64,000 nt of DNA from a virus (Duplodnaviria; Caudoviricetes): IMG/VR virus record IMGVR_UViG_3300029267_004155. One strand, 5' to 3'. A model generated the notes under the pieces. The model worked only from the letters and a program-made list of their open reading frames with translations, was not told the origin of the DNA and made no database searches. Each line of letters starts with the position of its first letter. Positions within the stretch are counted from its first letter, which is position 1. Shown in pieces: positions 567-35,443 of this stretch. The position numbers were made by a program, and so were the translations under genes.

Positions 567-770
567 ATGGACGCGGACGAGAGGGACGGGTTGACGGCGA
601 GATGGGCCGACAGGGGCCGTGACGGCTCCTGCAACTTCTGCCTGCGTCCCCATCGGAAGGTGTACGTGGTGAAGGGCAGGTCGAGCCTTCGCACGCTGGA
701 GGTCCGGCTCTGCCAGCGCTGCCGGGACGAGCTGATGAAGCAGAGCTGGTCCCGCACAGGAGGTGAGTGA
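567..770 (+). CDS. Small Zn-finger protein
   Basis: CNFC...CQRC; GGAGG RBS. Confidence 0.55.
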   Translation: MDADERDGLTARWADRGRDGSCNFCLRPHRKVYVVKGRSSLRTLEVRLCQRCRDELMKQSWSRTGGE

Positions 771-1030
771 TGGATGGGAGCAAGTGCATCATGGCCGGGG
801 TTCCGTTCTGCGTGGGGTGCCTGGACACCATGCGCGTCGTCAGGAACGACGCGATGGTGGTGTGTCCGGGCGGCGCGATGAGGCGGGCCTACAAGGGTGA
901 CCTCTACGAGTGCCGCCGCTGCGGGGCGAGGGTCTTCCAGCCGGCCATGATGGGGATTGACATCAGCCCGGGAGAGGTCGGCGAGATCGCTGCGTCCGGC
1001 GAAGAGGTAATCCTGATGGAGGGTGTGTGA
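767..1030 (+). CDS. Zn-ribbon protein with GEIAASGEE tail
   Basis: CVGC...CRRC; coupled to neighbouring genes. Confidence 0.6.
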   Translation: MMDGSKCIMAGVPFCVGCLDTMRVVRNDAMVVCPGGAMRRAYKGDLYECRRCGARVFQPAMMGIDISPGEVGEIAASGEEVILMEGV

Positions 1031-1181
1031 TGAGGCTGGTCTTTGCCAGGTTCGACGACGGGCACGAGTCTTACCTGTTTCGGGTGGGGCCCGAGTTCGA
1101 CCTTCAGGCCTGGATCAAGAGTCGCGAGAAGGTTTTCCGGCTGCTTTGCGTGGCCGGGCTGATAGTGGAGGAGGTCGACTG

Positions 1182-1814
1182 ATGAGCGAGTATTGCCTTA
1201 ATTGCGGGACCGAGCTGAACTGCCTCGACGAGGACCCGAACGGCGACAGGAACGTCGTCTGCGCGAAGTGCCGGGCCGAGGATGACCACGACTTCGACGC
1301 GGAGCCCGACGTCCGGTTCGGTCGGGACGGGAGGCTGGTCGAGGCCGAGCCGAGCCGTTCCGGCGACGAGGGCCCTGTCTGCGTCGGGTGCAGGAAGTCT
1401 CGCGAGGAGGAGGCCGGCGTGTGCTCGGCGTGCGGGGCGGAGACGGAGGTCCAGTTCCTCCCTCTCCACATTATTGGGAGCGAGGGCACCTGGCTCTGCC
1501 ACTCCTGCAAGATGACCGTGATCGGGGTGATAAGGGGCATGAGGAGCGCGGCTGGAAGGGCTGTCGTGGCCCACCGGAAGCGGCAGAGGCGGCATGGGAA
1601 GGGGATCATGACCGGGACGTCGGAGAGGATGACGGTGGACGAGATGGTGAGGGAGCGGGTGAGGGCCCACCTCCGTGGCGACTGGCCTCGCATGGCCGAG
1701 CTCGACCTTGCGGGCCAGGATTACACGAACCACGGATACTGGACGAAGGTGCAGACCTTGAGCCCCCTCAGCGACGACGAGCTGCGGGAGTGGCTCGACG
1801 AAGGAGGCGAGTGA
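1182..1814 (+). CDS. Multi-CxxC hypothetical protein
   Basis: GGAGG RBS; five CxxC pairs. Confidence 0.55.
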   Translation: MSEYCLNCGTELNCLDEDPNGDRNVVCAKCRAEDDHDFDAEPDVRFGRDGRLVEAEPSRSGDEGPVCVGCRKSREEEAGVCSACGAETEVQFLPLHIIGSEGTWLCHSCKMTVIGVIRGMRSAAGRAVVAHRKRQRRHGKGIMTGTSERMTVDEMVRERVRAHLRGDWPRMAELDLAGQDYTNHGYWTKVQTLSPLSDDELREWLDEGGE

Positions 1815-2233
1815 TGTCTGAGTGGCTTGACAATCTGAAGGTCGGCGACAAGGTGACGGTGGTCCCGGGCGGCCTCATGGCGCAGGGGCGCATCGTCGGT
1901 GGCGAGATCACGGGCGAGACCAAGACGCTCTGGAGGGTGGCCTTTGGTCGTGACGGCCAGTATGTCGGGAGCTACCTCAAGCGGAGCGGGAAGGTGAGCG
2001 GTTCCTCCTCCTCCGACTTCTATTCGGGGCGCATCGATCCCTATGACGACGAGGCGATCCGGGTCGCGGTCGAGGAGCGCCGGCGCTCCCGCCTGGCCCG
2101 GAAGCTGGAGGACTACCCCTGGAGGAAGCTCACCGGCGACGAGCTGCGGCAGGTGCAGGAGTTCGTAAAAGGGCTGGTGGACACGCGTGAGGAGAGGAAG
2201 GCGGACGCTGCCGGGAAGGAGGGCGGATCATGA
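1814..2233 (+). CDS. Hypothetical protein, SH3/KOW-like N-terminus
   Basis: LDNLKVGDKV motif; TGATG overlap with upstream gene. Confidence 0.6.
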   Translation: MSEWLDNLKVGDKVTVVPGGLMAQGRIVGGEITGETKTLWRVAFGRDGQYVGSYLKRSGKVSGSSSSDFYSGRIDPYDDEAIRVAVEERRRSRLARKLEDYPWRKLTGDELRQVQEFVKGLVDTREERKADAAGKEGGS

Positions 2234-4168: not shown

Positions 4169-4172
4169 CGAC

Positions 4173-15430: not shown

Positions 15431-16448
15431 CATGAGGTGGTTCGTCATTCATTCGGCTCCGGGGGATGTCCGTGGGTTTAAGAGCTTCCCCGAGGAGGCC
15501 AAGGCGGAGATGGAGGAGTGGATCGCCGGGAAGGTGACGGAGGGCCACCCCGCGACCGACTTCACGGTCGTCAGGGGCTGGCGGCACGCCGTCCGGCCGA
15601 GGACGGCGGTGGTGGGCGTCAAGGTGGGAAAGGCGGTGGGAGAGGTGATTGGCGACGACCCTCCCGGCCCGGAGCACAAGGACGGAAGATGACCATGAGT
15701 CCGGAGGAGATGGTGGCCGACGCGGCCAGGAGATGCGGGGTTCCGGAGGAGGAGCTTCGGAGCTACAGCTTTCCGAAGATGTTCGGGAGTGCGGCGGGGA
15801 CGGCCGGCGATCCTCGGGACGACGAGCCGCCGGAGCCTCCTCCGCCTCCGACGCTCTCGGCCGGCCAGTTCCGGGCTTCTCTTCCGACCTTCCGCCGGCG
15901 ACCTGGCCGGCACCCGCTGACCCGGTGGCTCCAGCGCAAGCATGGAGGGGGCCGGCGGTGAGCGTGACGGTCATGATGCGGACGGACGCCGGGGTCGTGG
16001 TCGAGGCCGAGGTGAAGGAGGGGGTCTTCATCCAGATGGGGACGGCTCTCGTTGCGGGGGAGGACGGGAAGGTCCGACCCATGAACAGGGACGACTTCCT
16101 CGGCGCCGTCGGTTTCTCCCTGGGCGTTTCCCCGGACGACGGCTCGGTGCAGGCCGGCGACGAGATTATTCTGCCGGAAACCTCCAGGGACTGACATGGC
16201 GCGGCGTATGCTAGGTGAAAGGCAGGAAGGAGTCAGGCGATGAACGAAGGTGAGATAAGGCAGTTGGCACAGCTGTTCGCACTCCAGGCCGAGATGCACG
16301 CCGTGGTGGCTGAGATTGAAGCTGTCAAGATAGTGGTTGCGAATCAGAAGATGCTGAGGAAGGGGGGAAGGCCTGTTTGTGACGAGAAGGCTTTCGAGAA
16401 GGCGAGGGACGAGCTGTTTTCCATAGCCCACGCCATGCGGACCAAGAT

Positions 16449-17375: not shown

Positions 17376-18001
17376 TGCCGGCTGTCAACCATCCCATGCA
17401 CGTGGGGATGCTCCGAAGGTGGAAGGACGACCCCAGGGGCGACCTGTACGGCTGCCAGTGGGGCGACCCGGAGGAGGGCCACGAGATCGTGACCCTCGCC
17501 AGGGACCACTACCTGCTGCCCTTGCTGGGGCCGTCCTCCACGGTGGTCGAGATAGGGCCGGGAGGGGGCAGGTGGACCAGGTACATGACGGGATGCAGGA
17601 AGGTCTACGCCGTCGATGTCTCCCGTGAGATGCTCGACGAGCTGGCGCGCTCGTTCCGGCATCCGTTCCTGGTGCCCGTCCTGGGTGGCGGCACGGACCT
17701 GGCCGGCGTGCCTGACGGCTGCGCCGACCTGGTCTGGTCGTATGACGTCTTCGTCCATCTGGAGCTGGACGCGATACGGGCCTACCTGAAGGAGATGTGG
17801 AGGGTGCTGAGGCGGGGCGGCCAGGGCGTCATCCACTACTCCGACAAGACCAAGCCGAATGGTTTGGCCAACACCGGCTTCTCCGACAACGACCCGGCGA
17901 GGATGAGGGCCGCGGTCGGGGATGCCGGCTTCCGGATCGTGGGCGAGAACGTGACCTGGAACCCGATGGGCGCGATAATCTGGTTCGAGAGGCCGGGATG
18001 A
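17372..18001 (+). CDS. Class I SAM-dependent methyltransferase
   Basis: VEIGPGGGRWT, VDVS, D.VWSYDVFVHL, RVLRRGG. Confidence 0.88.
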   Translation: MMPAVNHPMHVGMLRRWKDDPRGDLYGCQWGDPEEGHEIVTLARDHYLLPLLGPSSTVVEIGPGGGRWTRYMTGCRKVYAVDVSREMLDELARSFRHPFLVPVLGGGTDLAGVPDGCADLVWSYDVFVHLELDAIRAYLKEMWRVLRRGGQGVIHYSDKTKPNGLANTGFSDNDPARMRAAVGDAGFRIVGENVTWNPMGAIIWFERPG

Positions 18002-19057: not shown

Positions 19058-19354
19058 ATGGCGGGCAAGGGTGACACGCCGAGGCCGGTGAACAGGGCCA
19101 GGTACGACGAGGGCTATGAGCGGATATTCGGAACCGACGACGAGGTGGCCCGGAGGCGGCGGGCCTCCATGGGGAAGGTTCGAGGTGAGAGGGGGTCTGC
19201 TGTCGTGATGGACGATTTCGCCTTCGTCGACGGGTCGATGGCCGCGGACATGGAGGAGATCGAGCTGGCAGTCGCCAAGGGGTTGCGGCTGCCGATTCAG
19301 TTCCTGGTTGGCGACGACGGGGATGTGAGGACGAGCAAGGAGGAGAAGTTATGA
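19058..19354 (+). CDS. Small protein, GKGDTPRP...YERIF N-terminus and GDVRTSKEE tail
   Basis: RBS; motif. Confidence 0.55.
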   Translation: MAGKGDTPRPVNRARYDEGYERIFGTDDEVARRRRASMGKVRGERGSAVVMDDFAFVDGSMAADMEEIELAVAKGLRLPIQFLVGDDGDVRTSKEEKL

Positions 19355-21302: not shown

Positions 21303-21539
21303 ATGGCCGACGGCAGGTCGTTTCTCGCCAGGAGGATGGCCGACGAGGTCGAGTCGAGAGGCGACGCCGTCGTCTGCCGATGCGGGAGGTGCGGCTGGCA
21401 GGGCTACCTGGAGGAGGCCCATGTCGAGCTGGACGAGCAGGTCTTCACGGGATGGCGCTGCCCGAGGTGCTCGGGGCGGGTCGTCCTGGAGAGGGTGCTC
21501 GGAGGCGACGTCCTGGCGGCCGGGGAGGGGACGAGATGA
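21303..21539 (+). CDS. CxxCGWxG Zn-ribbon family protein
   Basis: CGRCGWQG...CPRC...GGDVLAAGE. Confidence 0.65.
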   Translation: MADGRSFLARRMADEVESRGDAVVCRCGRCGWQGYLEEAHVELDEQVFTGWRCPRCSGRVVLERVLGGDVLAAGEGTR

Positions 21540-21901
21540 CGGTCTTCAAGTGCGGGGCCTGCGGGTGGCGGGGAGACACGAACGACGTCGGGTGGGACCT
21601 GGCCAGGGCGATGCGGGCGTGCGGCGCCTGCGGCTCGACGAGCCTGCGGGTCGTGGCCAGGCTGCCGAGCGGGGACGTGATGGCCGAGGATGAGAACATG
21701 AGGGCGCACGAGGCCGCGGCCAGGGCGGCCTGCGGAACTCCCGACGGGGACGTGATGGGCGTGGACGAGGAAATGAGGATGGGCCTTGCCATTGAGGAGT
21801 CGAGTCGTGGTAGAGATGACAGTAACCCAACACTTGAGGCAACATCTGCTGACCCGTCCCCGAGGAGGGGTGAGGAACGCCCTCCGTCTGCCTCCACTTG
21901 A
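21536..21901 (+). CDS. CxxCGWxG Zn-ribbon family protein
   Basis: CGACGWRG...CGAC...GDVMAEDE. Confidence 0.6.
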   Translation: MTVFKCGACGWRGDTNDVGWDLARAMRACGACGSTSLRVVARLPSGDVMAEDENMRAHEAAARAACGTPDGDVMGVDEEMRMGLAIEESSRGRDDSNPTLEATSADPSPRRGEERPPSAST

Positions 21902-22184
21902 AGATATGCGGGAAAGTCAATGGAGCTCTGAGTTTGAGCAGTTTCAGAGGAACCGGCTCATTTTCGGAGCTCATCGGTATGGAATGGAGTTTGGAAATGC
22001 TTCATATGACTACGTCGGTGCTCTGAGGACTCGCCTTCGTGAGTATGAGGAGACTGGAAATCTCGAGTTCCTTGTTGACGTGGCCAACTACGCGATGCTC
22101 GAGTTCGTGGTTGGAAGGAGACGAGGGAAAGAGATGAGGCCCGTGGATGGAGGAACTCATTGTGGGAAGAAGAACGTCAGGTGA
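21816..22184 (+). CDS. Lower-GC inserted phage protein (RNRLIFGAHRYG...TGNLEFLVDVANYAMLEF)
   Basis: Visibly more AT-rich than neighbours; flanked by ~50-bp direct repeats. Confidence 0.6.
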   Translation: MTVTQHLRQHLLTRPRGGVRNALRLPPLEDMRESQWSSEFEQFQRNRLIFGAHRYGMEFGNASYDYVGALRTRLREYEETGNLEFLVDVANYAMLEFVVGRRRGKEMRPVDGGTHCGKKNVR

Positions 22185-22205
22185 GTTGGAACTCCCGACG
22201 AGGAG

Positions 22206-22679
22206 ATGGGCGTGGACGAGGAGATGAGGATGGGCAGGGAGTGGGTGCCCGCATGCCACGACTGCGGATGGTGGGGGGTCGACGACGACCTGGCCGGCGA
22301 CAACAACGGGAGCCGGACCCTCTGCCCGAGATGCCTGGGCGGGAACGTCGGGAGGCTGTGGGTCGAGAAGGGCGTCGTCGAGGCGGTGAGCGAGGCCCCG
22401 GACGGCTTCCGCAAGGGCTCCGTCCACGTCCTGGAGAGGACGACGGAGAGGGACGAGCCGCTGAGAAGGGCCTCCGACAACGTTCTCCATGGGGCCGTTC
22501 ACGCAATGGACGAGGAGGCGGACGAGAGCGAAAGGCTGAACAAGGCGTTCGCGGCCGTGGAGGCCCACGACGTCGACGTCAGGTCGGTGATGATCTTCGG
22601 AACCGACGACGAGCGCGACAAGGTCCTTGGCGACCTGAGGGACTTCGGGGGCCGGATGGGGACGTGGCCGTCGAGATAG
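22206..22679 (+). CDS. CxxCGWxG Zn-ribbon protein with capsid-like C-terminal segment
   Basis: CHDCGWWG...CPRC; LNKAFAAVEAHDVDVRSV. Confidence 0.55.
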   Translation: MGVDEEMRMGREWVPACHDCGWWGVDDDLAGDNNGSRTLCPRCLGGNVGRLWVEKGVVEAVSEAPDGFRKGSVHVLERTTERDEPLRRASDNVLHGAVHAMDEEADESERLNKAFAAVEAHDVDVRSVMIFGTDDERDKVLGDLRDFGGRMGTWPSR

Positions 22680-23044
22680 CCAAGTGGAGAAGGGTCGTGA
22701 CGGGCGACGTCGAGGACGAGAGGATGTACGTCCTGGAGGAGAAGGTCGCCAAGGAGTGGTTCGAGAACGGAGAGGTCGTGGCGTATGATGAGGTGTGACG
22801 ACGAAGGCTGAGAATGGAGGACGAGGCATGAGGAGGTACATGGTGACGATGGCCGAGTCGATCGCGATCTCTTACGAGACCGTGGAGGCGGACTACGTCG
22901 AGGTCGAGAATGGCTGCCTGGTCTTCTGCAGGCATGTCGATGACGAGAAGGGAAAGGACGACGTGATCCAGGCCTTCGCCAAGGGGGCGTGGGCCAGGGT
23001 CGAGGAGATCGAGAGTCGAAACGAGGAGAAGAAGGAGACGAGAG

Positions 23045-23452
23045 ATGAAGCACGCGCATGAGGTGACGGTGGCCCCGATCATGAACGGGGTCCTGGTGAG
23101 GGCCGGATGCAAGACGCTGTTCGCCAAGCCGGAGGACCTGAAGGGCCTCGAGGGCTACTTCGCCAAGGGCGACGCGGCCAAGGTGCCGGCCAGGTTCAAG
23201 CGGTGGGTCAGGGACGGCGAGGCCTTCAGGGGCCCCGAGGGGCCTTGCGCCGAAGAGACGGAGAGCTGCCTCGACATCAAGGAGGGCATGTCGAGGCCGT
23301 CCTTCCTGGACAAGAGCGGAGCCGTGGTCGTCCACAGGATCACCAACGGCTTCGTGGTGGAGTGCGACAGGCAGTGCTGGGGCGTCGAGCCGGGCAAGGA
23401 CGAGAAGCCCGAGGATACCGTTTACGGGCTCCTGGCAGGCGTGCTGTCATGA
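23045..23452 (+). CDS. Hypothetical protein, paralog of 14027..14566
   Basis: RAGCKTLFAKPEDLKGLEGY. Confidence 0.6.
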   Translation: MKHAHEVTVAPIMNGVLVRAGCKTLFAKPEDLKGLEGYFAKGDAAKVPARFKRWVRDGEAFRGPEGPCAEETESCLDIKEGMSRPSFLDKSGAVVVHRITNGFVVECDRQCWGVEPGKDEKPEDTVYGLLAGVLS

Positions 23453-23904
23453 GGTGGAGGGTCATGGCCCCGCTCAGGTTCGTCGGCCTGGCGGTCCGCC
23501 TCAAGGCCGAGGTCCTCGGCCGGGCCGGATGGCGGCGGGTGACGTGCCTTTGGCGCGGCCGGAGGCCGATCGGGCAGGCGGGGCCGGAGGCCGATCGGGC
23601 TCGGCAAGCCCAGGCGCGTTGAGGTTCCGCTGTTCGAGACCGTGGCCTGCCCGGCCATCCGGCTCGATGACGTCAAGGCCAGGCGCCTCGTCCTGTTCGG
23701 CGACGATTCGGACATAGTCTCGCTGGTCAGATGCTCCGAGTGCGGCTGGCTGGGCGAGTCGTGGAGGCTGAGGAGGCTCCCGTTGCGGGCGTGTCCCCGG
23801 AAGCGATGCCCGAGATGCGCGACGGACGAGGTCGGGGCGCTGGTGGCCATGGACCTGGGCGGCACCGACGTGGGCGTCTGGGAGGAGCGGAAGGAGGAGA
23901 CGAC

Positions 23905-24336
23905 ATGAGCAGGCCGCCGCCATGCGACCGGGAGGTCTTCAGGAAGGGCCGGAGCATCATGGCCTGCGACACGGGCACCGCCGAATGCCGGGCGGAGGAC
24001 TTCGAGGCCTGGATCGTCAGCGTCAGGAGAAGGCTGCCGAAGGGCAGCGGGATCGACTGGCACTACTTCGGGGGCGTGGCCAACGTCCTGGCCCTCGGGG
24101 ACCGTGAGGCCGTTCTGGACGCCGTCGGGGGCATGATGTCCTCCTGCCCGGCCAGCGTCATGCGATGGGTGGGGGAGGGCGAGATCGGGCCGCACCGGTC
24201 CGGGGTCACCCCGGCCCCGCAGGGGGCCATGGGCGCGAGCTACGGGCCGGACGGCGGGGAGTTCCTCCTGGAGGGAAGCCGGGCCCCGGAGCCGGGCGAC
24301 GTCGTGGCGGCCGACGACGAGAGGGCCGGGCCGTGA
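23905..24336 (+). CDS. Hypothetical protein (IDWHYFGG) with GDVVAADDE tail
   Basis: RBS; coupling. Confidence 0.6.
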   Translation: MSRPPPCDREVFRKGRSIMACDTGTAECRAEDFEAWIVSVRRRLPKGSGIDWHYFGGVANVLALGDREAVLDAVGGMMSSCPASVMRWVGEGEIGPHRSGVTPAPQGAMGASYGPDGGEFLLEGSRAPEPGDVVAADDERAGP

Positions 24337-25067
24337 TCCTGGCCAGATGCGCCAAGTGCGGGTGGAGGGGGGTCGACGAGCATTGCTCGAAGGAGCTGGT
24401 CGAGTGCCCGAGATGCGGGAGGCCCGTCGTCGGGCTCTCGATCATGTTCGAGCCGGACGTCGTGGCGACGGACGAGACGAAGGACGAGGAGAGGGAGCGG
24501 GACATGAGAGACGGAGGGGACGAGGAGATCGAGGCGGTCTCCATGACGAGGTGCTCCAGATGCAACCACGAGGCCAGCTCGAAGGAGTGGGAAGGGAGCA
24601 AATGCCCGGAGTGCGGCTCCGGGTGCGCGTTGCAGTGGATAGTGGACCACCCCGGGGAGGTCGAGGTGTTCGAGGACGGGGAGGTGGAGGTCTACGAGGA
24701 CGGGGGAGATGAGGTGTGGGGTGAGCGGATCGAGGCCAGAGGCTGGGTCACCATCTGCAACGGGTGCGGGTGGCAGGGGGACTTCGAGAGGGACATGAGG
24801 GAGAGGGGGCCGAGGGGCTGGGAGTGCCCGGAGTGCGGATGGGGAGTCGGGGAGGCCGTCAGGGTGGACGACGGCGAGGTCTGGGCCAGGAAGGAGAGGG
24901 CGGAGGACGCCATGCCGGACGTCGAGGCGTTCCCTGCCGGAGGGACGACCCGGGACCCCTCCTGGGCCGACGTGATGGGGGCCTACGACAGGCTCCTCGA
25001 AGGGAGGGCGAAGGACAGGATGCTCGACGGGGCCGTCCTCGCCGAGCGGGAGAGGAGGGAGCCGTGA
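24333..25067 (+). CDS. Triple Zn-ribbon family protein
   Basis: Three CxxC..CPxC units, each followed by a [GP][DE]V.x.[DE]-type motif. Confidence 0.65.
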   Translation: MILARCAKCGWRGVDEHCSKELVECPRCGRPVVGLSIMFEPDVVATDETKDEERERDMRDGGDEEIEAVSMTRCSRCNHEASSKEWEGSKCPECGSGCALQWIVDHPGEVEVFEDGEVEVYEDGGDEVWGERIEARGWVTICNGCGWQGDFERDMRERGPRGWECPECGWGVGEAVRVDDGEVWARKERAEDAMPDVEAFPAGGTTRDPSWADVMGAYDRLLEGRAKDRMLDGAVLAERERREP

Positions 25068-25327
25068 GGCACTACAGGTGCAGATGCGGGAACAGGAAGA
25101 TGTGGGGCTCGATGCCGCCAAGCCCGTGCCAGGGCTGCCCGAAGTGCGGCACCACCATGGCCCATGATCCGGCGAGATGCAAAACGCCGGAGCCGCACGA
25201 CTGGACCACCGAGGAGACCGTCGGGGATGGCGACACCGTCAGGAGAACGACGCGCTGCCGAAGGTGTCATGAGAGGATGGACGACTCGACGGACGTGGTG
25301 GCCGAGGACGAGAAGGTCGAGCCATGA
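25064..25327 (+). CDS. Cys-rich small protein
   Basis: CRCG...CQGCPKCG...CRRC; DVVAEDE tail. Confidence 0.55.
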   Translation: MRHYRCRCGNRKMWGSMPPSPCQGCPKCGTTMAHDPARCKTPEPHDWTTEETVGDGDTVRRTTRCRRCHERMDDSTDVVAEDEKVEP

Positions 25328-25584
25328 GACAAGTCGGAGTCCAGGGGCCGCAGGGCTGGCCCGAGGAGGCGACGGGGTCGTGGTCGCCTGCTTCGAGGAG
25401 GTGACGACATGACTGAGGAGTACGTGGTGCTGACGGTCAGTCGCTGCCCGAGATGCGGGTGGGAGCTGTCCAGGCACGTGGTGGAGATGCGGCTTGGGGA
25501 CGTCGTGCTGTTTGACGAGAGGGACGTGGGGGCGCTGGACGAGCAGGGCGACGTCCAGGTGGCGGACGACGAGAGGAGGGAGCC

Positions 25585-25947
25585 GTGCTGAAGACGAACA
25601 AGTGGAGCCTGAACGTGGCCTTCTCCCACGTGGAGAGCATGGACTACTTTGTGGTGGGCGTCCTGGCGAGGGAGCCTCTGGAGTGCGAGGACGGACTCTG
25701 GGAGTCATTCCCGCCGGTGGGGGTGAGCAAGGACGTCGCCAGGTCCGACGACAGGGTGGCCATGATCCTGGTGGGCGTGAGGGACCGCAGCTCCATCGCC
25801 GTGGGCTTCGCTCTCCAGGAGGACGGAGACTGGGAGTGCCTGATGACCGACGAGGAGAAGGACGAGCACCTGCGAGCCTTGAACGCCAAGGCGGAGGCGA
25901 GGATGAAGGCCCCGCCCGACGAGCCGAGGGAGGGGCCGGGGTCATGA
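25585..25947 (+). CDS. Hypothetical protein
   Basis: RBS; coupling. Confidence 0.5.
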   Translation: MLKTNKWSLNVAFSHVESMDYFVVGVLAREPLECEDGLWESFPPVGVSKDVARSDDRVAMILVGVRDRSSIAVGFALQEDGDWECLMTDEEKDEHLRALNAKAEARMKAPPDEPREGPGS

Positions 25948-26315
25948 TCCTCGCGAGATGCACCGAATGCGGCTGGCACGGAGTCGACGAGCAGGTCGAC
26001 CAGGTCCTGGTCGCGGCCCCGGACGGAAGCAGGGGGCGACCGTGCCCCGAGTGCGGGCTGCCGAATGTCGCGCTCTCGATCCAGTTCGATGACGAGGGGG
26101 TCGTCGTCGCCACGACCGAGGAGCTGCTGGTGATCGACGGCCTGCCCGGGGTCTCCATCTGCGAGGCCTGCGGATGGGAGGGGGCTCCGTGGGAGCACGA
26201 CCAGTCGACCTGGCCGGCCCGGTGCCCGGCGTGCCACAGGAAGGCGATTGAGAGGACCATCCCGGGGCTCAGGCCCGGGGAGGTCCAGGTTCTCAGGGAG
26301 GAGGCGATGCCATGA
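25944..26315 (+). CDS. Double CxxCGWxG Zn-ribbon protein
   Basis: CTECGWHG..CPEC; CEACGWEG..CPAC..GEVQVLREE. Confidence 0.65.
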   Translation: MILARCTECGWHGVDEQVDQVLVAAPDGSRGRPCPECGLPNVALSIQFDDEGVVVATTEELLVIDGLPGVSICEACGWEGAPWEHDQSTWPARCPACHRKAIERTIPGLRPGEVQVLREEAMP

Positions 26316-26672
26316 GCAAGATCATGAGGCCGACCTTCCCGCCGATCATGACCTTGCTGACATGCCACAGCCGCGGATGGTCGGGGAATACGGACGAGCA
26401 GGGGACCTTCAAGGATGAAGCGGGAGATAGATGGATGTGCTGTCCGGAATGTAAAAGCGTGACGCTCGGGAGCGAGGCCGTCGAGACGGGCTTCGTCGGA
26501 GTCAGGGACGAGACCATGATGAAGAGACTAACGGCATGGAGATGCAAGAACTGCGGCCGGGAAGGAACCCCCGATCATCTGCCCGAGATGCCAAGGGGAG
26601 AGCTTTGAGAGGGTCGTGGCGAAGGAGGGGGACGTCTGGGCCACTGACGAGAAGATCGGGAGGGCGACGTGA
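26312..26672 (+). pseudogene. Frameshifted double Zn-ribbon family gene
   Basis: CKNCGREG frame continues in +1 frame as IICPRCQ...EGDVWATDEK; first unit has CHSR in place of CxxC. Confidence 0.6.
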
Positions 26673-26943
26673 CAGGAAGGTTCCATAGGAGGTGCCACGA
26701 GCGCGGATGGGACTGCGACGACGCGGACCATGACGAGATCAACGTCCCGGGGCCGTGCCCGAGATGCGGCAAGCTGCTCAGGAGGGGGAGTCCGGAAGGG
26801 CACCGAGAGGACCTTGCGGAACCGGACGAGCCACGGAAGAAGAAGCGAAGCCTACGGCTTCGAGGCGACGACCGGACGACGCCACGAATCGGAAAGGGCC
26901 ATCCTCAGGGACGGCCTCCCGAAGGCCGGAAGCCAGCGAAATG

Positions 26944-27146
26944 TCGGAGAAAAAAGCGATGCGGCTCTTTCTGGAAATCCACGGATGGCATGGAACGTGC
27001 CCGGGCGTCGTCACGGCAGGACCACCGTCCCGGTGAGGCGTCAAGGAAAAACCGATGGGACTTTTCCTGGAAATTCACGGGCTTGAAAAAACGTCGGGAA
27101 AAAACCGATGCGATTCTTTCTGGAAATTCACGGATGGCATGGAACC
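26944..27146. repeat. Three imperfect direct repeats (AAAAA.CGATG....TTT.CTGGAAAT.CACGG)
   Basis: Copies at ~26944, ~27045 and ~27093. Confidence 0.8.
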
Positions 27147-27311
27147 TGCCGTGACGGGGGCCGCGATCGAAGACGATCGAAGACGATCGTTTCGGGAGTG
27201 GGGGGTCCCGTGACCTGGGCTGTGTGCAATGGGCGCACACGTACAGGGGCGCGCATTTATCGTATGGTAGGGGCGTGGACAATTTCCGCATGGCGGGTCT
27301 GGAGGTGAGCG

Positions 27312-27608
27312 ATGAGGTGGTGTCCGGAATGTGGTGGCTCCCGGTTCGAGGGGCGTCGTTGGGAGATAAGGACGGTGGTGGTGGACGGTGACGGCGTTTC
27401 CCTGCCCGGGGATGGCGGCGTCGCGGGCTGGGAGCCGGAGACCCTGACGGTCGGCGTGCACTGGGGCCCGTACGTCTGCCTGGGGTGTGGGCGGAAGACG
27501 GCCGAGCTGGAAGACCTGCCGGAGACGGGCGACGTGCTGGCCGAGGGGGAGGCCGGAGGCCGAAGGGGGCCGGTCCGGAGGCCCCGGAGGCCTCCCGACG
27601 TCGCATAA
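27312..27608 (+). CDS. Zn-ribbon protein with GDVLAEGE tail
   Basis: CPEC...CLGC; GGAGG RBS. Confidence 0.55.
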   Translation: MRWCPECGGSRFEGRRWEIRTVVVDGDGVSLPGDGGVAGWEPETLTVGVHWGPYVCLGCGRKTAELEDLPETGDVLAEGEAGGRRGPVRRPRRPPDVA

Positions 27609-27626
27609 TATCATATTATGTTTAAT
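27598..27626 (+). other. dif-like XerC/XerD site with 7-bp spacer
   Basis: ACGTCGCATAA-TATCATA-TTATGTTTAAT vs E. coli dif GGTGCGCATAA-TGTATA-TTATGTTAAAT. Confidence 0.75.
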
Positions 27627-28624
27627 TCACGACGGAACTAATTGGACGTTTCGCGTCGCAAACGCGCCTGCCGCAGGTACTTGCGGCTACGAGAAAAAGA
27701 GGGAAATTCGGCATGCAACCTGCTATGGGTTATCAGGGGGGAATCGAGCCTTTTTTTCGCGCTGCTACAAAGAAGGTCGTCGATTGTAACGGTGGACGCC
27801 TGGTGGTGGTGGGCGGGGAGCTGGGCGAGTCCGCGGAGGTGGTGGTCGACGCGTCGGTGGAGGAGCTGAGGGCCGTCAGGGCCGGGGAGGTGGTGGCGGG
27901 TTCGGAGGCCATGGCGCCTGCCGGGGTCCGGGGAGGTGGTCGGCCCGGAGGTCCTGGGGCCTGCGGGGGCCTGCCCGGAGCCCGTCTCAACCGCGTCTCA
28001 ACCCGGCGGGGGCCTCCCGGGAAATAGGACGGCTATCGATCCGGCCTTCCGGGATCGGACCCCGGGGCGCTGTCGCGCGTCGGCGATTTTTTCGGAAATC
28101 CGAAAATCGGGAATTGGCCTTTTCGGGGCTTTCACATGCGCTCGCGTGCGCGTGTGGGGGAGGTGGTCTGATGGGTGAGGTGGTCGAGGGCTACGTGGTC
28201 CACTGGTGCCCGTCCTGTGGACGCCTGTGGGTATGGGAGAGCCGGCGGCTGCCTGACGAGATGGTGGTGTTCGACGTGGTCGAGAGGTGTGACGACGGGG
28301 GTTTCTGCTGGCATGATCGTGACGAGGTGGTTTTGCGGTTCTCTCCTGGGGAGGTCGGGGTTTGGCGCGAGGATGCTGGGTGGCCGGCATCCACAGGGAG
28401 CCGGGGCTGGAGGCGCATGGCGGTCTCCGGTGTCCCGTCTGCGACTTCCGGTTGGCGGGTGGCCACGTCGGGGGTGCCCGGGGTGCGGGGCGAGGCCCTT
28501 TCCCCTGTCGGGACGGGAGGAGTCGGGGGAGGTCGCCTGCTCGGGGAGGTTGAGTTTCTGGGAGGTGGTGGCTGTCTCGGAGGGGGTTGGGGGCGTATAG
28601 TGTCTTGACGGCCGGCGTCTTCAT

Positions 28625-28972
28625 GTGGATGACGGGTTCGTGTCCGACTCGCCGGGCTTGCCGGCCGCGAAGCTGTTGGTCCGTGCGGGTGCTCCTGAGG
28701 GGGCGACGGCGGGCGTCCCCGGTAACGGGCCCTTCCCGCCATTCCTGGAGGTTCGGGTGAGGCTGGTGGGTCACGACGAGAGTTGGTGGGCGTGTCTGTC
28801 GTGCGGTCACGTGGTCCACCGGGTCAGGAGGGGCGCTGTCCGGGACGGCTGCTCCTGCGGGGCTTGCGGGAAGGCGGCCTGGTGGGAGCGGTTCGTGATC
28901 GGCGAGGTGGTCGCCGTCCGCGAGGAGGTGTTCGACGTTCGCGAGGAGGTGTTCGATGGAGAATCTGGTTGA
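28625..28972 (+). CDS. Zn-ribbon protein with GEVVAVREE tail
   Basis: CLSC...CGAC. Confidence 0.5.
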   Translation: MDDGFVSDSPGLPAAKLLVRAGAPEGATAGVPGNGPFPPFLEVRVRLVGHDESWWACLSCGHVVHRVRRGAVRDGCSCGACGKAAWWERFVIGEVVAVREEVFDVREEVFDGESG

Positions 28973-29400
28973 CATCTTGACGCGCGGCCTTGCCGAGGTT
29001 CGGGCGGTCCGGGCCTCGGGGGCGGTTCGCGAGTGGGTCTCCGGGGACGTGTCGGTCTCCCTTCTGGAGGTTCCGGACGGGCGGTCCCGCGCCGTGGCGC
29101 GCTCCCCCGATGGCCGGGACGTGCTCGTCCTTCTCTTCGAGGACGCCGGGGCTCTTCGCGAGCTGGTCGAGGGCGTGGTCCGGGAGGCCGGGGCCCTTCG
29201 CGAGCTGGTCGGGGCCGGGGGCGGCACGAGGCTGATGGTCGCCGTCCGGGGGTCTCTGACGGGGCTGGCCCTGGTTGGCGACGGCTGGCGGTGGGCGGCG
29301 GTCGACGGCCCTTGACGGGGCCGTTCCTGCCGCGGGTCGGCGCTTTTCCCGGAGCCGTCCGGCGGGATCGGGCTTTTCACCGTGGGCGAGGAGGCTGGTG

Positions 29401-29820
29401 ATGGTTTCGGAGTGCGTGGTCTGGCGTTGCGGGCGTTGCGGGTGGGAGGGCGTGGGTGACGGGAGCTGTCCTGGTTGCGACAGGTCCGGGGCCTTCTGGA
29501 CCGACGACGGCCTCATGCGTCCTCGCGAGGCGGGGTCCTTCGAGGACGGCGAGGTCCTGGCGAGGCACGAGGAGCTGGGGCGGCTCGCCGGATGGATTGT
29601 CTTCAGCTGCCCGGGTTGCGGCTGGGTTGGCCGCGGGGCGCCCACGGAGGTGCTTCCTGACGGCTCCTGGGGGTCCGGGAGGGTTTGCCCCGGGTGTTCG
29701 AGGCTCGGCGTGTCCGAAGAGGGTTACGTGTCCGCGGACGGCCTTGACGTGACGGCGGCGGCGGAGGTGGTTCGGACGAGGTTTCGGGGGCGTGGTGGTC
29801 TGAGAAGAGGAGGTTGTTGA
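29401..29820 (+). CDS. Double CxxCGWxG Zn-ribbon protein
   Basis: CGRCGWEG..CPGC..DGEVLARHEE; CPGCGWVG..CPGC. Confidence 0.65.
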   Translation: MVSECVVWRCGRCGWEGVGDGSCPGCDRSGAFWTDDGLMRPREAGSFEDGEVLARHEELGRLAGWIVFSCPGCGWVGRGAPTEVLPDGSWGSGRVCPGCSRLGVSEEGYVSADGLDVTAAAEVVRTRFRGRGGLRRGGC

Positions 29821-30246
29821 TGAGGCGGACGGGTAGGAGCCTGATGGCGTGCGCGTTCTGCGGCGAGCTTCTTCGCGGGAAGGAGCTTGCTCCTCCTGGC
29901 CGGGTGGCCTGGAGGTGCGCGGTGGGGCGTCCGGAGATGGGCGACGGGAGGGAGCTGTGGAGGCCCGCGGCCGACTACCACGGCCTGCGGCTTCCGGCCA
30001 GGTGCTGGCTCCGGAGGGGGGAGGTGGTCTGTGCCGAGGTGTCTTGAGGCGTGCTCCGGGTGCGGGTTCCTGAGCGGGGCGGCGACGGCCTTGGGCGAGA
30101 CGGTGCCTGCTCGCCGTGGTGGTGGACGAGCGCGGCCCGCGGGGGGAGCCGCGGGCTCGTGGTGGGCCGTTCGAGGGCACGGAGCTGCCGGCAGCTCCGT
30201 GCCCGTACTCGACGGGCGAGGTCGGGGCCTTGGACGAGGAGGTTGG

Positions 30247-31194
30247 ATGAGCGTCACGAAGGAGGGGATCATAGCGAAGGCCCTGTCGACTCCGGAGGGT
30301 CGCCAGGAGCTGGCCCGGGCGATGTGGCCGTACGCCTGCGACGTCTGCGGGCGCTTCCCGATGAACTGGAAGGGTCTCGGGGTGAGGCCGGTGGAGACGT
30401 GCCCGGCGTGTGGCGCCGTCTGGTTCGACGCCGAGAGGAAGTGGGTGCCCGACGGCGACGTTGGGGCTTCGGACGAGGTTTCGGGGGCGTGGTGGTCGGA
30501 GAAGAGGAGGTGCGACGTGATAATAGGTGAGAACTTCGCGTGGGGCCACATTCCGAGGACCGGCGGCACCTTGACGGCCTGCCGGTTCGTCGAGGCTGCC
30601 AGGCTGTGCGGCGCGGCCTTGTCGGTGGACGGCGACCTGTCTCATTCCAAGCACGACCCCTTCCCCGCCCGGGCCGTGGAGGGCAAGGTCCTGGTCCTGA
30701 GCGTGCGCAGGCTGCCGTCCCTCTACCTGTCCTGGCTCGTGATGATGTCTGGCAGGCTGCGCCCCGGCGATCCCGTCTGCGGGGACTACGGGGGCGGGGT
30801 GTGGCCCTGCTACGTGCCTCTGCCGACGCCCACCAGGGGCCAGGTGCTCGGGGTCGAGGACTACCGCGTGCGCGACTTCGTGGACGTCTACGGTCCCCTG
30901 CGGTGCTTCCCGGACGCCTATCTCAGGTCCTTCACGGACGACGGGAGGCTGAAGGTGGACCACCACATCCGGCTGGAGTTCCTCGACCGGGATTTCCGGC
31001 GGGTGGCCGTGGCGCTGGGGATGGACTACGACGAGGACGCGTTCCGGCCCGTGGCGCCCGGGGCCAAGGTCGTCTTCTCGTACGACCACGACGTCGCGGG
31101 GTATTTCTCGGAGGGCGACCTGGAGGTCCTGTACGCCAACAACCCCCTGTGGGCCGCGATGGAGGCCGAGGTCTATGGCGGGGTGCCCGGATGA
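30247..31194 (+). CDS. Zn-ribbon fused in frame to a sulfotransferase-like domain (possible internal start GTG 30517)
   Basis: CDVC..CPAC..GDVGASDE, then WGHIPRTGGT (5'-PSB-like) and IRLEFLDRDF. Confidence 0.6.
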   Translation: MSVTKEGIIAKALSTPEGRQELARAMWPYACDVCGRFPMNWKGLGVRPVETCPACGAVWFDAERKWVPDGDVGASDEVSGAWWSEKRRCDVIIGENFAWGHIPRTGGTLTACRFVEAARLCGAALSVDGDLSHSKHDPFPARAVEGKVLVLSVRRLPSLYLSWLVMMSGRLRPGDPVCGDYGGGVWPCYVPLPTPTRGQVLGVEDYRVRDFVDVYGPLRCFPDAYLRSFTDDGRLKVDHHIRLEFLDRDFRRVAVALGMDYDEDAFRPVAPGAKVVFSYDHDVAGYFSEGDLEVLYANNPLWAAMEAEVYGGVPG

Positions 31195-31412
31195 GAAGGT
31201 GTCTCGACGCGTGTAGGGGCTGTCGGTTCTGGCGGGCGCGGGTGCGGCTCGGCGCCGACGACCTCTACAGGTGCGTGTGTTTCGTCGTTTCCTTCGGTGG
31301 CGGGGTGATGGCGGAGGACTGGGCCTCTCGGGGCGTCTACGAGGGTCGCCATCTCCCGGCCGGGTGCCTGGCCCTCGGCGATGTTGCGACCGTGGACGAG
31401 GAGCTGTCATGA
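31191..31412 (+). CDS. Cys-motif small protein with GDVATVDEE tail
   Basis: Paralogous to 29820..30047 and 34568..34924. Confidence 0.55.
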   Translation: MRRCLDACRGCRFWRARVRLGADDLYRCVCFVVSFGGGVMAEDWASRGVYEGRHLPAGCLALGDVATVDEELS

Positions 31413-31681
31413 GCGACGCGGGCCGCTTGACCGCCGACGACCTGAGCGTGGCCTTCGAGAAGATCGAGAGGACGGACGCTCAGGCCGGGGCCGTGACGGT
31501 GGGCGTCGAGGCCTGGGAGGAGCTGGGGAGGATGGGGTCCGACGCCCTGGTGCCCGCGACGGAGGAGGAGCTGTTCAGGAACGGCTTCGTCGGGTCGATC
31601 TGGGGCGCCAACCTGCATGTCTCGTGCCCTCCTGGCGAGGTGATGGCGAGTGACGAGGTGATCGAGAGGCGTATGGTGTGA
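31409..31681 (+). CDS. Small protein resembling a major-capsid fragment
   Basis: LTADDLSVAFEKIE...ELFRNGFVGSIWGANLHVS..PGEV; similarity recalled, not searched. Confidence 0.45.
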   Translation: MSDAGRLTADDLSVAFEKIERTDAQAGAVTVGVEAWEELGRMGSDALVPATEEELFRNGFVGSIWGANLHVSCPPGEVMASDEVIERRMV

Positions 31682-33341
31682 CGACGGACGCGGATGAGAG
31701 GAACGGGATCGTGGCGGTCGACGGGACGAAGGACGGGACCGGGGTGGCATGATGGTTTTCTCGAAGGTGTTCGGGACGATGGCGTCGGGAAGGAGGCTGT
31801 CCGCCGACTGGGCACCGGCGGTCGCGGCCTGCGGTCTTTGTCATGCCTCTGTCCTGAGGGGCGACGGCGAGGGCAACTTCGCGGCTCTGGGCGTCTGTCC
31901 GAGGTGCGGGGCCGTCCGCGTCGGCGTGACGGGGAAGTGGGTCCTGGGCGAGGTGGTGGTGAGAGAGGAGGAGAAAGCGGATGGATGAGAAGGCGTCCGG
32001 GGTCGGGAGGTTCAGTCCCGGGGTGATGGTGCCCGGCGTGGGCCTCGTCGAGGTTCCTGGCTGGATGTGGGTCCTGGCCTTCGCCCTCCGCGGGGTGCCC
32101 TGGGCCATGGAGGAGGTCTCCGGCCCGGAGTTCGGGGCCGTGGTCCGGGCCTGGGTCGAGGAGGACGCCAGGCGGAAGGCCTCGGCCGGGATCGACCGGT
32201 GTCTCAAGGAGGTGGCCAGGCTGAGGAAGGAGCTGGGGACGTGACCGAGAAGTTCTACAGGGAGCTGTGCGGGTTGCTGAACCGGCTGCTGGAGGCCGAT
32301 CCGGCGAAGGCGGAGGCCGTGGCGGAGTCGGGGCTGCTGGAGCTGGCGAACGAGAGGCGCCCGCAGGTCATGGGGCCGCTGGTGGCCCATTGGCACGAGG
32401 TCATGGTGGACGAGGTTTCCCAGGGCGGCAGACTGACGGCGTTCGAGCTGTGGCTTGGCGCCCGGGACGCGAAGCCGAAGGAGAAGGTTCATGAGGTCGG
32501 CGGTGAGCATGGGGATGAAGCTATGGTGGATGAGGCGGCCGAAGTGCCGCGATTGCCGGAAGGTGCGGCTGCTAGGCGCGGAGGCGAGAAGGACGCGCCG
32601 GTGCGCGGCTTGCAGGAGGAAGGCGGATGCTCGAGAGGCTGAGATGTAAGATGTTCGGGCATGTCCGGGGCTCGGAGGAGATTGAGGAGTCGGTTGGCCG
32701 GCTTCGCGAGCCCGGCGGCCTCATGCGTGAGGGTTCCCGGCCATCTCGGGATGATGGCTTGCTGTGAGGTTGGGATGTTCGGGGTGGGATGAGGAGACGA
32801 CCATGAACGAGGATAGGTGCATGCTGGGGCCGACGAGCTCCGAGGAGATTCCCTGCTACGTGACCGCGGAGGAGAGGCCCGTCGAGCCGACGTGGTTCGG
32901 CCGGCTGTGCTGTCTGGTGCTCGGGCACGTGGAGGTGGTGAGGCTGGAAGAGAGCGTCGGCGAGCTCAGGGAGCCTGACGGGGAGCCTCGCGAGGTGGTG
33001 GTTCGCCTGTTGATTACCGAATGTCTGCGCTGCGGGAAGCTGATTGCGCTTCATCCGGCGGGCGTCGCGAGGGACCCGGCTCGGGGAGGTTGGATGGAGA
33101 AGGCGGATGGCGTGTGACTCGGGAGGAAGTTTGTGGAGACGACCATGACGTAGGAACGGGAGGTGCGCGAGAGTTGGTGAAGCGAAGGGCGGCAGCCGAC
33201 TGCCGTGGGGCTCTTTGTTCCCAACCTGCCGAGGGTGCCGCGTGGCAGACGGCACGAGGTTCGATTCCTTCCCTCCCGTCCAATCGAGGCCCGCATGCCC
33301 GGAGGTCCGGAGGGCGCGGAGTGCAGGAGAAAGGTGGGCAC

Positions 33342-34577
33342 ATGATCGACTTGACTGACGCGACGTTCATGATCGCGATGAGGGCGGACTCGGAGGAGCG
33401 TGTCCGGATGCTCCGGATGGTGGTCGACTACCTGGGGTCGGTGGTGGACGCCCCGATCCTGATAGGGGAGGAGGGTCCGGAGCCGACGCTGGAGGCCCTT
33501 TTCCCCGGGTGCGAGCACGTCTTCGTGCATTCGGCCGACGAGGTCTTCCGGAGGGCCAGGCTGCTGAACGCGATGTGGGCGCGCGTGCGCACGCGGTACG
33601 CCTTCAACCACGACGGCGACTGCTGGGTGGCCCCGGAGGGCTACCGCCGGGCGGTCGAGATGCTTAGGTGGTCGGACGTGGACGTGGCCTATCCGCACGT
33701 CCGGCTCAGGGACCACGTGGAGCTGCCGGGTCCTGGCGTCGGGTGCTCGGAGCTGGGTTCGGCGCCGTCGGTCTCCACGGCGTGGCGGCAGTACGGAGGC
33801 CTGATCGGCTATCGCCGGGAGGCCTTCGTCCGGGCCGGCATGGAGAACGAGAAGTTCGTCAGCTGGGGCTTCGAGGACGTGTCCAGGCTGGAGCGCCTGG
33901 AGAGGCTCGGGCAGAAGGCCGTGTGCGTCAGGGACTTCAGGCTCAGGCACTTCCTGCATGCCAGGCCGTTGAACAGCGACATGTCCAGCGAGTACGTCTC
34001 GGGGAACGAGGCGGAGCTGTGGCGGATGAGGGGGATGAGCCTGGAGGACCTGGTCTGGTACGTGTCGAGCTGGCCGTGGTCCGCCCACGTCCACGGGGAC
34101 GGCCATCTCCTGTTCGACCGCCACCCGTCGATGGCCAGGGTTCACGGGTGGGCGTCGAACGCGGGGCTTCACGAGGACGGGTTCCTGAGGAAGGAGTGGG
34201 CGTACGGGAGGATGGTTCTCGCGCTGAGGCCCGAGGAGGACGGCCCGGTTGGCGTCGCGCTCCCTTTCCGGCCCGGCGGCTACGCCTTCGATCCACCGGA
34301 CCTGCGGGAGGCCGCGCTCGTGGTCCGGTACGTCGGGTCCGATCCGTTCAGGCTGGCGCTGTTCGACGGGGGAGGGCGGCCCTCGAAGGAGGTCGTGGTC
34401 GAGCCGCGCGACACGTCGGGGTCGTGGTCGGGCGTGGAGTGGCAGGAGGTCTCGGTGCCGATGCTCGGGATGTTCGGGCAGCCGGGGCCAGCAGGCGGCC
34501 TGATGACGCTGGCGTTGAACTTCGCCGGGCTGACCAGGGACTTCGCGATAGGGGAGGCGGGGTTGAGATGGGGCTAG
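33342..34577 (+). CDS. GT-A glycosyltransferase (GT2/GT7-like) with C-terminal extension
   Basis: F.RARLLN, HDGD (DxD), GMENEKFVSWGFED, HFLH. Confidence 0.8.
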   Translation: MIDLTDATFMIAMRADSEERVRMLRMVVDYLGSVVDAPILIGEEGPEPTLEALFPGCEHVFVHSADEVFRRARLLNAMWARVRTRYAFNHDGDCWVAPEGYRRAVEMLRWSDVDVAYPHVRLRDHVELPGPGVGCSELGSAPSVSTAWRQYGGLIGYRREAFVRAGMENEKFVSWGFEDVSRLERLERLGQKAVCVRDFRLRHFLHARPLNSDMSSEYVSGNEAELWRMRGMSLEDLVWYVSSWPWSAHVHGDGHLLFDRHPSMARVHGWASNAGLHEDGFLRKEWAYGRMVLALRPEEDGPVGVALPFRPGGYAFDPPDLREAALVVRYVGSDPFRLALFDGGGRPSKEVVVEPRDTSGSWSGVEWQEVSVPMLGMFGQPGPAGGLMTLALNFAGLTRDFAIGEAGLRWG

Positions 34578-34924
34578 ACAGGGAGACGTGCCGGGGGTGC
34601 GTCTTGACGTACGTGAGAAGAACCTTCGTGCCCGGCGCCTTCGACGACGAGCAGCTCGACCTCTTCGCGAGGGATTGGGAGAGGGGGGAGGTGCGGTGTC
34701 CCGGCGTGTTGCGGCTGCCGGCCACGGAGACGCCGATGAGGGTCGGCGAAAGCGGGCGCTTCATCTTCGAGAGCTTCGTCGGGGTCGGCGGGCCGATTCC
34801 CGGCTGCTGCCTGGAGAAGGAGGGGCAGCTGGGCCCGGAGGCGTGGGGCGCGTACCTGAGGGCCCTGGAGCTGAACGGGGAGCTGTTGCCGGGCGAGGTC
34901 GTGGCGACGGCGGAGGAGAGATGA
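34568..34924 (+). CDS. Cys-motif protein with GEVVATAEE tail
   Basis: CRGC...C...PIPGCC. Confidence 0.55.
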   Translation: MGLDRETCRGCVLTYVRRTFVPGAFDDEQLDLFARDWERGEVRCPGVLRLPATETPMRVGESGRFIFESFVGVGGPIPGCCLEKEGQLGPEAWGAYLRALELNGELLPGEVVATAEER

Positions 34925-35223
34925 GCATCCTCGACGACATGGACCTGAGCGACCCGGTCGTGGTCCGGATGGAGTGGCAGGACGACAAGTACGATTCGGG
35001 GCGGTGGCTCGGGGAGCACGAGTGGCAGTGCGCGTGCGAAGGGTGGAACGGAAGGCCGGTGGCGCCTCGCAGGGTGCACAGGAGGCTGAACGTTAAGCGT
35101 GGGCAGATTTTGACGGCGGTGACCTGCGACGCCTGCGAGCGTTGCGGGTGCGGCGTCACGGTGATGTTCGTGGCTCACGACGACGGGAGCGTGGAGGCGG
35201 CCGATGAAGACGACCCACGGTAG
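34921..35223 (+). CDS. Zn-binding small protein with DGSVEAADE tail
   Basis: CAC...CERC. Confidence 0.55.
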   Translation: MSILDDMDLSDPVVVRMEWQDDKYDSGRWLGEHEWQCACEGWNGRPVAPRRVHRRLNVKRGQILTAVTCDACERCGCGVTVMFVAHDDGSVEAADEDDPR

Positions 35224-35443
35224 TTTTGCCGTGACGATTCCGTGGGACGGGACGCACGAGTGTGGCCGGTGCGGGCACCGGTGGCGCGAGGCGGCCGAGA
35301 AGGACGTGGTTCCAGGAGTGGTCGAGCAAGTCGCGGCCTTCGAGGAGTGCCCGTCCTGCGGCGGGAGGTTGTGGACGCTGTTCCGCGGCTACCGCGACGG
35401 GAGCGTCGGGACGGAAGGAGAGACATGGATTGGCAGTGGATGA
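35204..35443 (+). CDS. Zn-ribbon protein
   Basis: CGRCGHRW...CPSC. Confidence 0.55.
   Translation: MKTTHGSFAVTIPWDGTHECGRCGHRWREAAEKDVVPGVVEQVAAFEECPSCGGRLWTLFRGYRDGSVGTEGETWIGSG

Follow-up and report, generated by a model that had tools for sequence, protein, structure and literature searches.

The closest described system to the one treated here is that of Bacillus phage G, in whose genome zinc ribbons have undergone a lineage-specific expansion to about 35 copies (Iyer et al., 2021, PMC7824862). Their function is untested, and it has been suggested that they are transcription factors or structural DNA-binding proteins (PMC7824862). We have analyzed a stretch of 64,000 nucleotides (the window) from the 298,395-bp contig of an uncultured phage (Duplodnaviria; Caudoviricetes; IMG/VR record IMGVR_UViG_3300029267_004155), so that all the figures given below refer to 64 kb of a genome of about 298 kb. 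Here again part of a huge phage's genome is given over to one small zinc ribbon (ZnR) in many diverged copies, the likeness to phage G being one of genome organization. Unlike the phage G proteins as they have been described (PMC7824862), the copies found here share a constant C-terminal peptide of eight or nine residues, hereafter the tail, that is also present on unrelated neighbours. Besides, the ZnR cores of the window are near neutral, which does not favour a role in DNA binding like the one suggested for phage G. Huge phages devote a sizeable share of their genes to expanded families of tiny proteins of obscure role. In this case, a peptide no less conserved than the zinc ligands, and that recurs between domains and on neighbouring proteins, offers a concrete experimental handle.

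Other known elements resemble the tail in part. The C-terminal tip of the single-stranded DNA-binding protein (SSB) is an acidic docking tail, and short linear motifs may bind by beta-strand addition. The tail is likewise a short conserved peptide, acidic and hydrophobic, that lies in a flexible context and is sometimes multiplied, but its sequence is unrelated and many of its copies are internal linkers. In the Cluster K mycobacteriophages, start-associated sequences are conserved DNA words located just upstream of many start codons. Our phage also has a high GC content and a repeated element near many starts; however, its synonymous sites vary freely and the pattern is bound to the reading frame of the upstream gene. 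As to the ZnR domain itself, both knuckle signatures (C-x-x-C-G-aromatic ... C-P-x-C-G) are those of rubredoxin, although there was no match to the Pfam rubredoxin family and the rubredoxin rows obtained with Foldseek were non-significant. In a search of the literature, no paper turned up in which such a shared tail is described.

A zinc-ribbon family with a constant tail

An earlier note on this DNA had listed 23 short acidic strings on small, otherwise unrelated proteins and had read them as a tag carried by over 20 cargos of diverse kinds. All 23 strings were found on the plus strand, but the position numbers given with them mostly mark the start of the carrying gene and not the motif. With a slightly wider pattern, [PD]-G-[DE]-V-x-[AV]-x-[DE]-E, we found about 30 copies on the plus strand and none on the minus strand; at the C-termini of the proteins encoded beyond 36 kb the pattern was also absent. 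All the copies except four were located between 19 and 35.5 kb. A total of 18 lay at 10 residues or less from a stop codon and 12 were internal. Among the 30 copies, G was present in 26, [DE] in 26 (with S in three others), V in 27, [AV] in 24 and E or D at position 7 in 29.

Most of the proteins carrying the tail turned out to be related. A regular expression for the layout C-x-x-C-G-W-x-G, 15-30 residues, C-P-x-C-G, 8-12 residues, tail, retrieved 14 seed domains, and a hidden Markov model (HMM) built on these detected 23 domains at an independent E-value (i-E) below 0.01, 21 of them at 21.3-35.4 kb. The family amounts to at least 23 domain copies in about 20 open reading frames (ORFs) of the contig, some of them fused. 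In an alignment of 22 domains (A1), with pairwise identities of about 26-42%, the near-invariant positions were C27, G31, C53, C56, V70 and E75, the last two being the V and E of the tail; the fourth cysteine was present in most rows. BLASTP joined the members to each other (down to 1.8e-14) and not to the other tail carriers. The two C-x-x-C knuckles, 15-30 residues apart, are conserved across the members, as expected for zinc ribbons, and the best scores against the curated Pfam zinc-ribbon families HypA, Zn_ribbon_8, DZR and DUF6510 (22-24 bits) fell under the cut-offs of 26-29.

When the 23 strings were assigned to their proteins, 16 belonged to ZnR paralogues, two to probable decayed copies and five or six to unrelated proteins. 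About two thirds of the carriers are therefore ZnR paralogues and not the unrelated cargos of the earlier proposal, since they inherit the tail along with one domain. Most carriers thus owe the tail to common descent. That the motif also closes individual domains in multi-domain proteins was borne out in the fused members, and the tail is thus found in three settings: at C-termini, between the domains of fused members and in tandem micro-duplications. The ZnR cores are near neutral (mean charge -0.8) and the tails acidic (-2.4). A role in nucleic-acid binding with an autoinhibitory acidic tail was considered and rejected because the cores are not basic.

The tail is conserved as a peptide

The window has 66% G+C, its plus strand is strongly G-rich (GC skew of about +0.2) and nearly all its genes are on that strand. 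A codon-usage and ribosome-binding site (RBS) model trained on the window called 109 genes. Those of the first 36 kb or so are small, and since most of them overlap the next one at ATGA or GTGA, the Shine-Dalgarno (SD) sequence of each gene sits within the final codons of the preceding one. Such an arrangement could by itself generate acidic, glycine-rich protein ends, and the suspicion that RBS overlap might explain the motif had been raised from the start. Actually, in the terminal copies the acidic codons mostly double as the SD sequence of the next overlapping gene, and in 10 of the 18 the G codon of the tail lies 29-38 nt before the next start. The acidic end is then partly dual-coded with the downstream SD sequence, but the G-[DE]-V-x-[AV] core is not explained in this way, and the SD sequence accounts for at most the last two residues of the terminal copies.

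The evidence for this comes from several controls. A total of 28 genes located below 19 kb have the same overlapping junctions and the same SD-coded ends rich in glycine and glutamate, without the core of the tail: G-[DE]-V appeared in the C-terminal window of none of these 28 SD-embedded genes versus nine of the 23 at 19-35.5 kb. When residues 25 to 6 from the end were shuffled, holding the last five (SD-coded) residues constant, a mean of 0.18 genes had a C-terminal match versus the eight observed (p<5e-4). The enrichment thus persists once SD sequences and composition are taken into account. The acidic pair was kept in 16 of the 18 terminal copies and also in 10 of the 12 internal ones, after which there is no following gene.

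We also examined the codons. Those used for the conserved G, V and A match the regional synonymous usage (p=0.14, 0.96 and 0.59), and D and E alternate at the tail in a 13:12 ratio, which confirms the claim that conservation is at the level of the peptide. At 24-41 nt upstream of the starts, the DNA pattern is present only in the upstream gene's own frame. Because codons follow regional usage, the pattern is frame-bound and the internal copies keep the acidic pair, we conclude that selection acts on the tail peptide and not on the DNA. A DNA-level repeat or junction cassette associated with starts was rejected on account of the regional codon usage, the occurrences in frame 0 only and the junction DNA, which between different copies reaches at most 54% ungapped identity. 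The explanation by RBS and codon bias is largely refuted. The case illustrates how SD sequences embedded in gene junctions can mimic or mask peptide motifs, and the ways in which both can be separated.

Unrelated proteins with the same tail

To a lesser extent the earlier claim holds, since a handful of proteins with nothing else in common end in the tail. We trained a 10-column tail matrix on ZnR members only and scanned it against 88 non-family proteins. The seven best matches, and eight of the nine best, were located 0-8 residues from the C-terminus, and there were eight matches in 968 C-terminal positions versus one in 13,472 internal positions (p<5e-4 versus shuffle). After removing two probable decayed ZnR copies, five or six carriers are left, starting at 15958, 19058, 22664, 23905, 31409 and 34568. 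No relation of these carriers to the ZnR family could be detected by BLASTP or profile comparisons. All of them are inside the array or at about 5 kb or less from a ZnR member, and no carrier was found among the 64 other genes of the window. Local recombination, or else fusion at the junctions between genes, may have given them the tail.

One of these proteins (31409-31681) aligns to residues 151-219 of gp27, the major capsid protein of phage G. Its tail continues the capsid-homologous stretch and pairs with a P-x-N-x-V-x-V-x-x-D-x-E segment of gp27. The fragment sits in an array of accessory genes, far from any structural module seen in the window. The C-terminal half of the protein at 22212-22679 gave a weak match of 20 residues to the same capsid-protein region (pairwise E=0.004), and a metagenomic relative (P0004) shares the segment adjoining this capsid-like piece. 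When the capsid-like fragment was searched against longer proteins, nothing came back except proteins of the window or the query itself.

Predicted structure of the domain and the tail

AlphaFold2 (AF2) was run with A1 (22 rows) on the single-domain protein of 21303-21539. The core blocks reached predicted local distance difference test (pLDDT) values of 90-95, with strands around both knuckles, and tail residues 66-78 were predicted as coil (pLDDT 53-74). The model of the two-domain protein of 25944-26315, from a seven-row alignment, was poor (58.5 overall) and both its tails were below 50. The expectation that the tail lies outside the confidently predicted fold is supported in these two models, built on shallow alignments. 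In a Foldseek comparison of the AF2 core with the PDB, all the rows had E>0.2 and most of them were zinc ribbons (TFIIE, HypA, rubredoxin), and the ESM Atlas look-up gave generic zinc-ribbon leads or nothing.

Relatives and turnover of the array

A profile search of 1.84 billion representative proteins gave 729 matches, nearly all of them generic multi-zinc-ribbon proteins aligned at the knuckles only. Three outside proteins matched through the tail. The domains of P0004 correspond to those of the window genes at 26312 and 21303, and P0042, a two-domain protein that looks richer in lysine and isoleucine, retains D-G-E-[IV] tails; the source contigs of both are shorter than 1 kb. The third, the metagenomic protein P0112, has tandem rubredoxin repeats, each followed by a G-G-D-V-V ... 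poly-Glu linker that resembles the tail. This linker could have arisen by convergence, or such linkers could be more widespread among rubredoxin-like knuckle domains.

More informative was a 1.4-kb metagenome fragment (L090, positions 1-1434) that codes for orthologues of the window genes at 18275 and 18622 (33% and 51% identity). Between these orthologues the fragment has two genes with ZnR domain and tail, and the window has none at that spot. Diverged relatives have thus retained both the family and its tail, with the copies at changed positions. The first of the two genes has no nearby stop and may carry an indel. The fragment was found with a back-translated knuckle-knuckle-tail DNA pattern that gave more than 116 metagenome matches, of which only this one was a relative, the G-[DE]-V of the others being imposed by the pattern itself; in viral contigs the same pattern gave three chance matches. 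Searches for related loci with the neighbouring 418-aa protein, P0004, P0042 and A1 gave nothing usable (one locus, L001, has only a generic zinc ribbon), and word-indexed homologue searches with A1 and P0042 found nothing beyond proteins of the window or the query itself. Among deposited phages, no close relatives were found by megablast with pieces of 10-12 kb, and tblastn with two large proteins gave nothing useful.

Within the array itself there are traces of change. Tail-coding DNA has undergone tandem micro-duplication at 24653-24717 (24 nt x2.7, 83%) and 28904-28956 (21 nt x2.5, 90%), giving rise to proteins in which two or three tails follow one another. Nine of 13 internal tails have, 8-21 codons farther on, a start-like codon (ATG or GTG) in frame and accompanied by an SD-like word, a generous figure because some of the GTGs belong to the next tandem tail, versus 29% at random in-frame positions; the layout of the multi-domain members fits an origin by fusion of neighbouring genes. 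For the split second domain at 26312-26672, the possible origins are a pseudogene with a frameshift, a mistake in the assembly and programmed frameshifting. Since junction DNA is not detectably similar between different copies, the ZnR copies must be old. A scan of the array for promoters and terminators gave nothing notable.

Family tail or free tag

The account we favour, with somewhat better than even confidence, is that the tail belongs to a family and is conserved at the peptide level, that it probably serves as a flexible peptide for contacts or linkage, and that it has spread locally by recombination. The family, one of ZnR microproteins, would have expanded in this phage lineage with the tail as its conserved C-terminal element, passed on together with the domain and retained through selection on the peptide. 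Its role would be that of a contact or spacer peptide, flexible, acidic and of the strand type, by which the ZnR members and a few outsiders might meet one common partner, the outsiders having presumably acquired it through local recombination or through fusion at gene junctions. What suggests a contact or spacer peptide is that the tail lies outside the predicted fold, links domains to each other, occurs in tandem copies and is present on a few unrelated neighbours. Several points weigh against this account. The near-neutral ZnR cores hint at no binding target. The AF2 alignments of 22 and seven rows are so shallow that a disordered tail is weak evidence, and the [PD]-G turn, together with the alternating V-x-[AV] behind it, could instead be a hairpin packing on the ZnR domain. 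If the tail reached the outsiders by recombination, this must have happened long ago, the junction DNA of different copies having no detectable similarity. Besides, tail carriers far from the array are possible in the rest of the genome.

The tail could alternatively be a free-standing address tag, that is, a portable signal for docking, packaging or degradation that a single hub of phage or host would recognize, and for which the ZnR proteins are just the commonest cargo. Its presence, always C-terminal, on five or six proteins unlike the ZnR family (a capsid-protein fragment among them), its flexibility in the AF2 models and its tandem multiplication in some proteins all speak for such a tag, but two thirds of the carriers are paralogues, 12 copies are internal and none of the 64 genes outside the array neighbourhood carries it. 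This reading is weakened because most carriers are kin and all of them are clustered, and we consider it unlikely. Put in its more specific form, a portable strand-type acidic address peptide would direct proteins to one hub, for example the capsid or portal for packaging and injection, a chaperone or a protease; we hold this to be doubtful, although with a chance that is far from negligible. If true, that hub would gather fast-evolving ZnR microproteins, an enzyme fusion and a capsid-protein fragment. Cleavage by a prohead protease, at sites of the S/A/G-x-E or L/I-x-E types, was set aside because the P3 position is too variable.

A more particular proposal is that the strand-turn-strand of the tail mimics a hairpin that the phage has in its major capsid protein, which would let the small proteins dock to capsid subunits or compete with them. 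In its favour, the tail of 31409-31681 matches the gp27 segment as a continuation of the homology and 22212-22679 holds a weak piece of the same capsid region; however, the likeness of the tail comes down to one pairwise alignment of about 12 residues without statistical support, and we find the idea very improbable. The least probable of the explanations, to which we give hardly any credence, is that the tail has no function as a peptide and is a by-product of SD and translational-coupling junctions, G-rich GNN codon bias and recent duplication. It is true that all the residues of the tail are encoded by GNN codons on a strongly G-rich strand, and that the acidic codons and the spacing of the G codon fit the next gene's SD sequence as described above. 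But similar junctions in the 28 genes below 19 kb lack the core, the enrichment outlasts a composition-preserving shuffle that keeps the SD-coded residues, internal tails are as conserved as terminal ones, synonymous sites are under no extra constraint, and the copies are old, with about 30% identity and junction DNA without similarity.

Features of the window

The coordinates of the array, of the ZnR genes and of the other tail carriers are given in Table 1.

Table 1. Zinc-ribbon genes and other tail carriers in the 64-kb window, with the position of the tail and the type of evidence
Coordinates	Strand	Feature	Tail	Evidence
21303..35443	+	Main array of ZnR-tail genes, with a few unrelated small genes interspersed		HMM, A1
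767..1030	+	Outlying ZnR gene	980-1006	HMM i-E 1e-11, motif
17998..18282	+	Outlying ZnR gene	18241-18267, T replacing G	HMM i-E 9e-11
21303..21539	+	Single-domain ZnR gene, 78 aa, modelled	21504-21527	AF2
21536..21901	+	ZnR gene	Two internal, 21671-21694 and 21746-21769, in-frame ATG after each	HMM, motif
22212..22679	+	ZnR; C-terminal part with weak capsid-protein-like piece	Degenerate	HMM i-E 5e-5
23642..23908	+	ZnR gene	Degenerate, near 23860-23890	HMM i-E 1e-13
24333..25067	+	Three fused ZnR domains	24453-24476, 24654-24701 (tandem, 24-nt repeat x2.7), 24870-24893	HMM, motif, repeat
25064..25327	+	ZnR gene	25289-25309	HMM, motif
25409..25591	+	Half ZnR	Repeated, 25496-25519 and 25547-25573	HMM, motif
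25944..26315	+	Two fused ZnR domains	26103-26126, 26277-26303	HMM, motif; weak AF2 model
26312..26672	+	Two-domain ZnR gene, second domain frameshift-split	26628-26651, in other frame	HMM
27312..27608	+	ZnR gene	Internal, 27528-27551	HMM, motif
28171..28608	+	C-x-x-C protein, low coding score	Tail-like motif, 28348-28374	Gene call, motif
28625..28972	+	ZnR gene	28901-28927, then 21-nt repeat x2.5 to 28956	HMM, repeat
29398..29820	+	Two fused ZnR domains	29548-29574, second tail degenerate	HMM
30247..31194	+	315-aa protein, N-terminal ZnR and tail fused to larger unrelated domain	30454-30477	HMM i-E 6e-15
31749..31988	+	ZnR gene	31947-31970	HMM, motif
34921..35223	+	Variant ZnR (C-x-C first knuckle)	35185-35208, S replacing D/E	Protein reading, A1
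35204..35443	+	ZnR gene	35399-35422, S replacing D/E	HMM i-E 1.5e-16
15958..16194	+	Non-ZnR carrier	Weak, 16141-16164, 8 residues from C-terminus	Tail matrix 12.9
19058..19354	+	Non-ZnR carrier	19319-19345	Tail matrix 16.1; no BLASTP link to ZnR family
22664..22798	+	Cys-free ORF, 44 aa	Two tail-like motifs, terminal one 22769-22792	Tail matrix 14.5
23905..24336	+	143-aa non-ZnR carrier	24295-24321	Tail matrix 19.4 (top); no Pfam/PHROG match
30116..30250	+	Short ORF, probably decayed ZnR copy	30215-30238	Tail matrix 18.1; low coding score
31242..31412	+	Short ORF, partial Cys pattern, probably decayed copy	31377-31400	Tail matrix 15.7
31409..31681	+	90-aa fragment-like paralogue of phage-G-type major capsid protein	Terminal, 31634-31657	Tail matrix 18.7; PDB 6wkk_A E=1.5e-4; phrog_2522 E=3.4e-4
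34568..34924	+	118-aa non-ZnR carrier	34892-34918	Tail matrix 16.3; no family match

Some other genes of the window deserve mention. Upstream of the array, a 371-aa protein (7175-8290) matched the serpin family over the C-terminal part of the latter, with a score under the threshold (E=1.3e-5; 25.1 bits versus a cut-off of 27). Just after the array, at 35727-36143, there is a 138-aa protein that consists mostly of tandem repeats rich in Arg, Glu and Asp, with periods of 33 and 21 nt. Farther on (48911-53596 and 55464-57383), a CobT-like VWA protein and an AAA_5 ATPase of the MoxR/CobS-like type are located a few genes apart, and after this pair there is a full NAD-dependent DNA ligase with BRCT. 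Finally, the 858-aa ORF at 60130-62706 has an intein bearing a LAGLIDADG homing-endonuclease domain.

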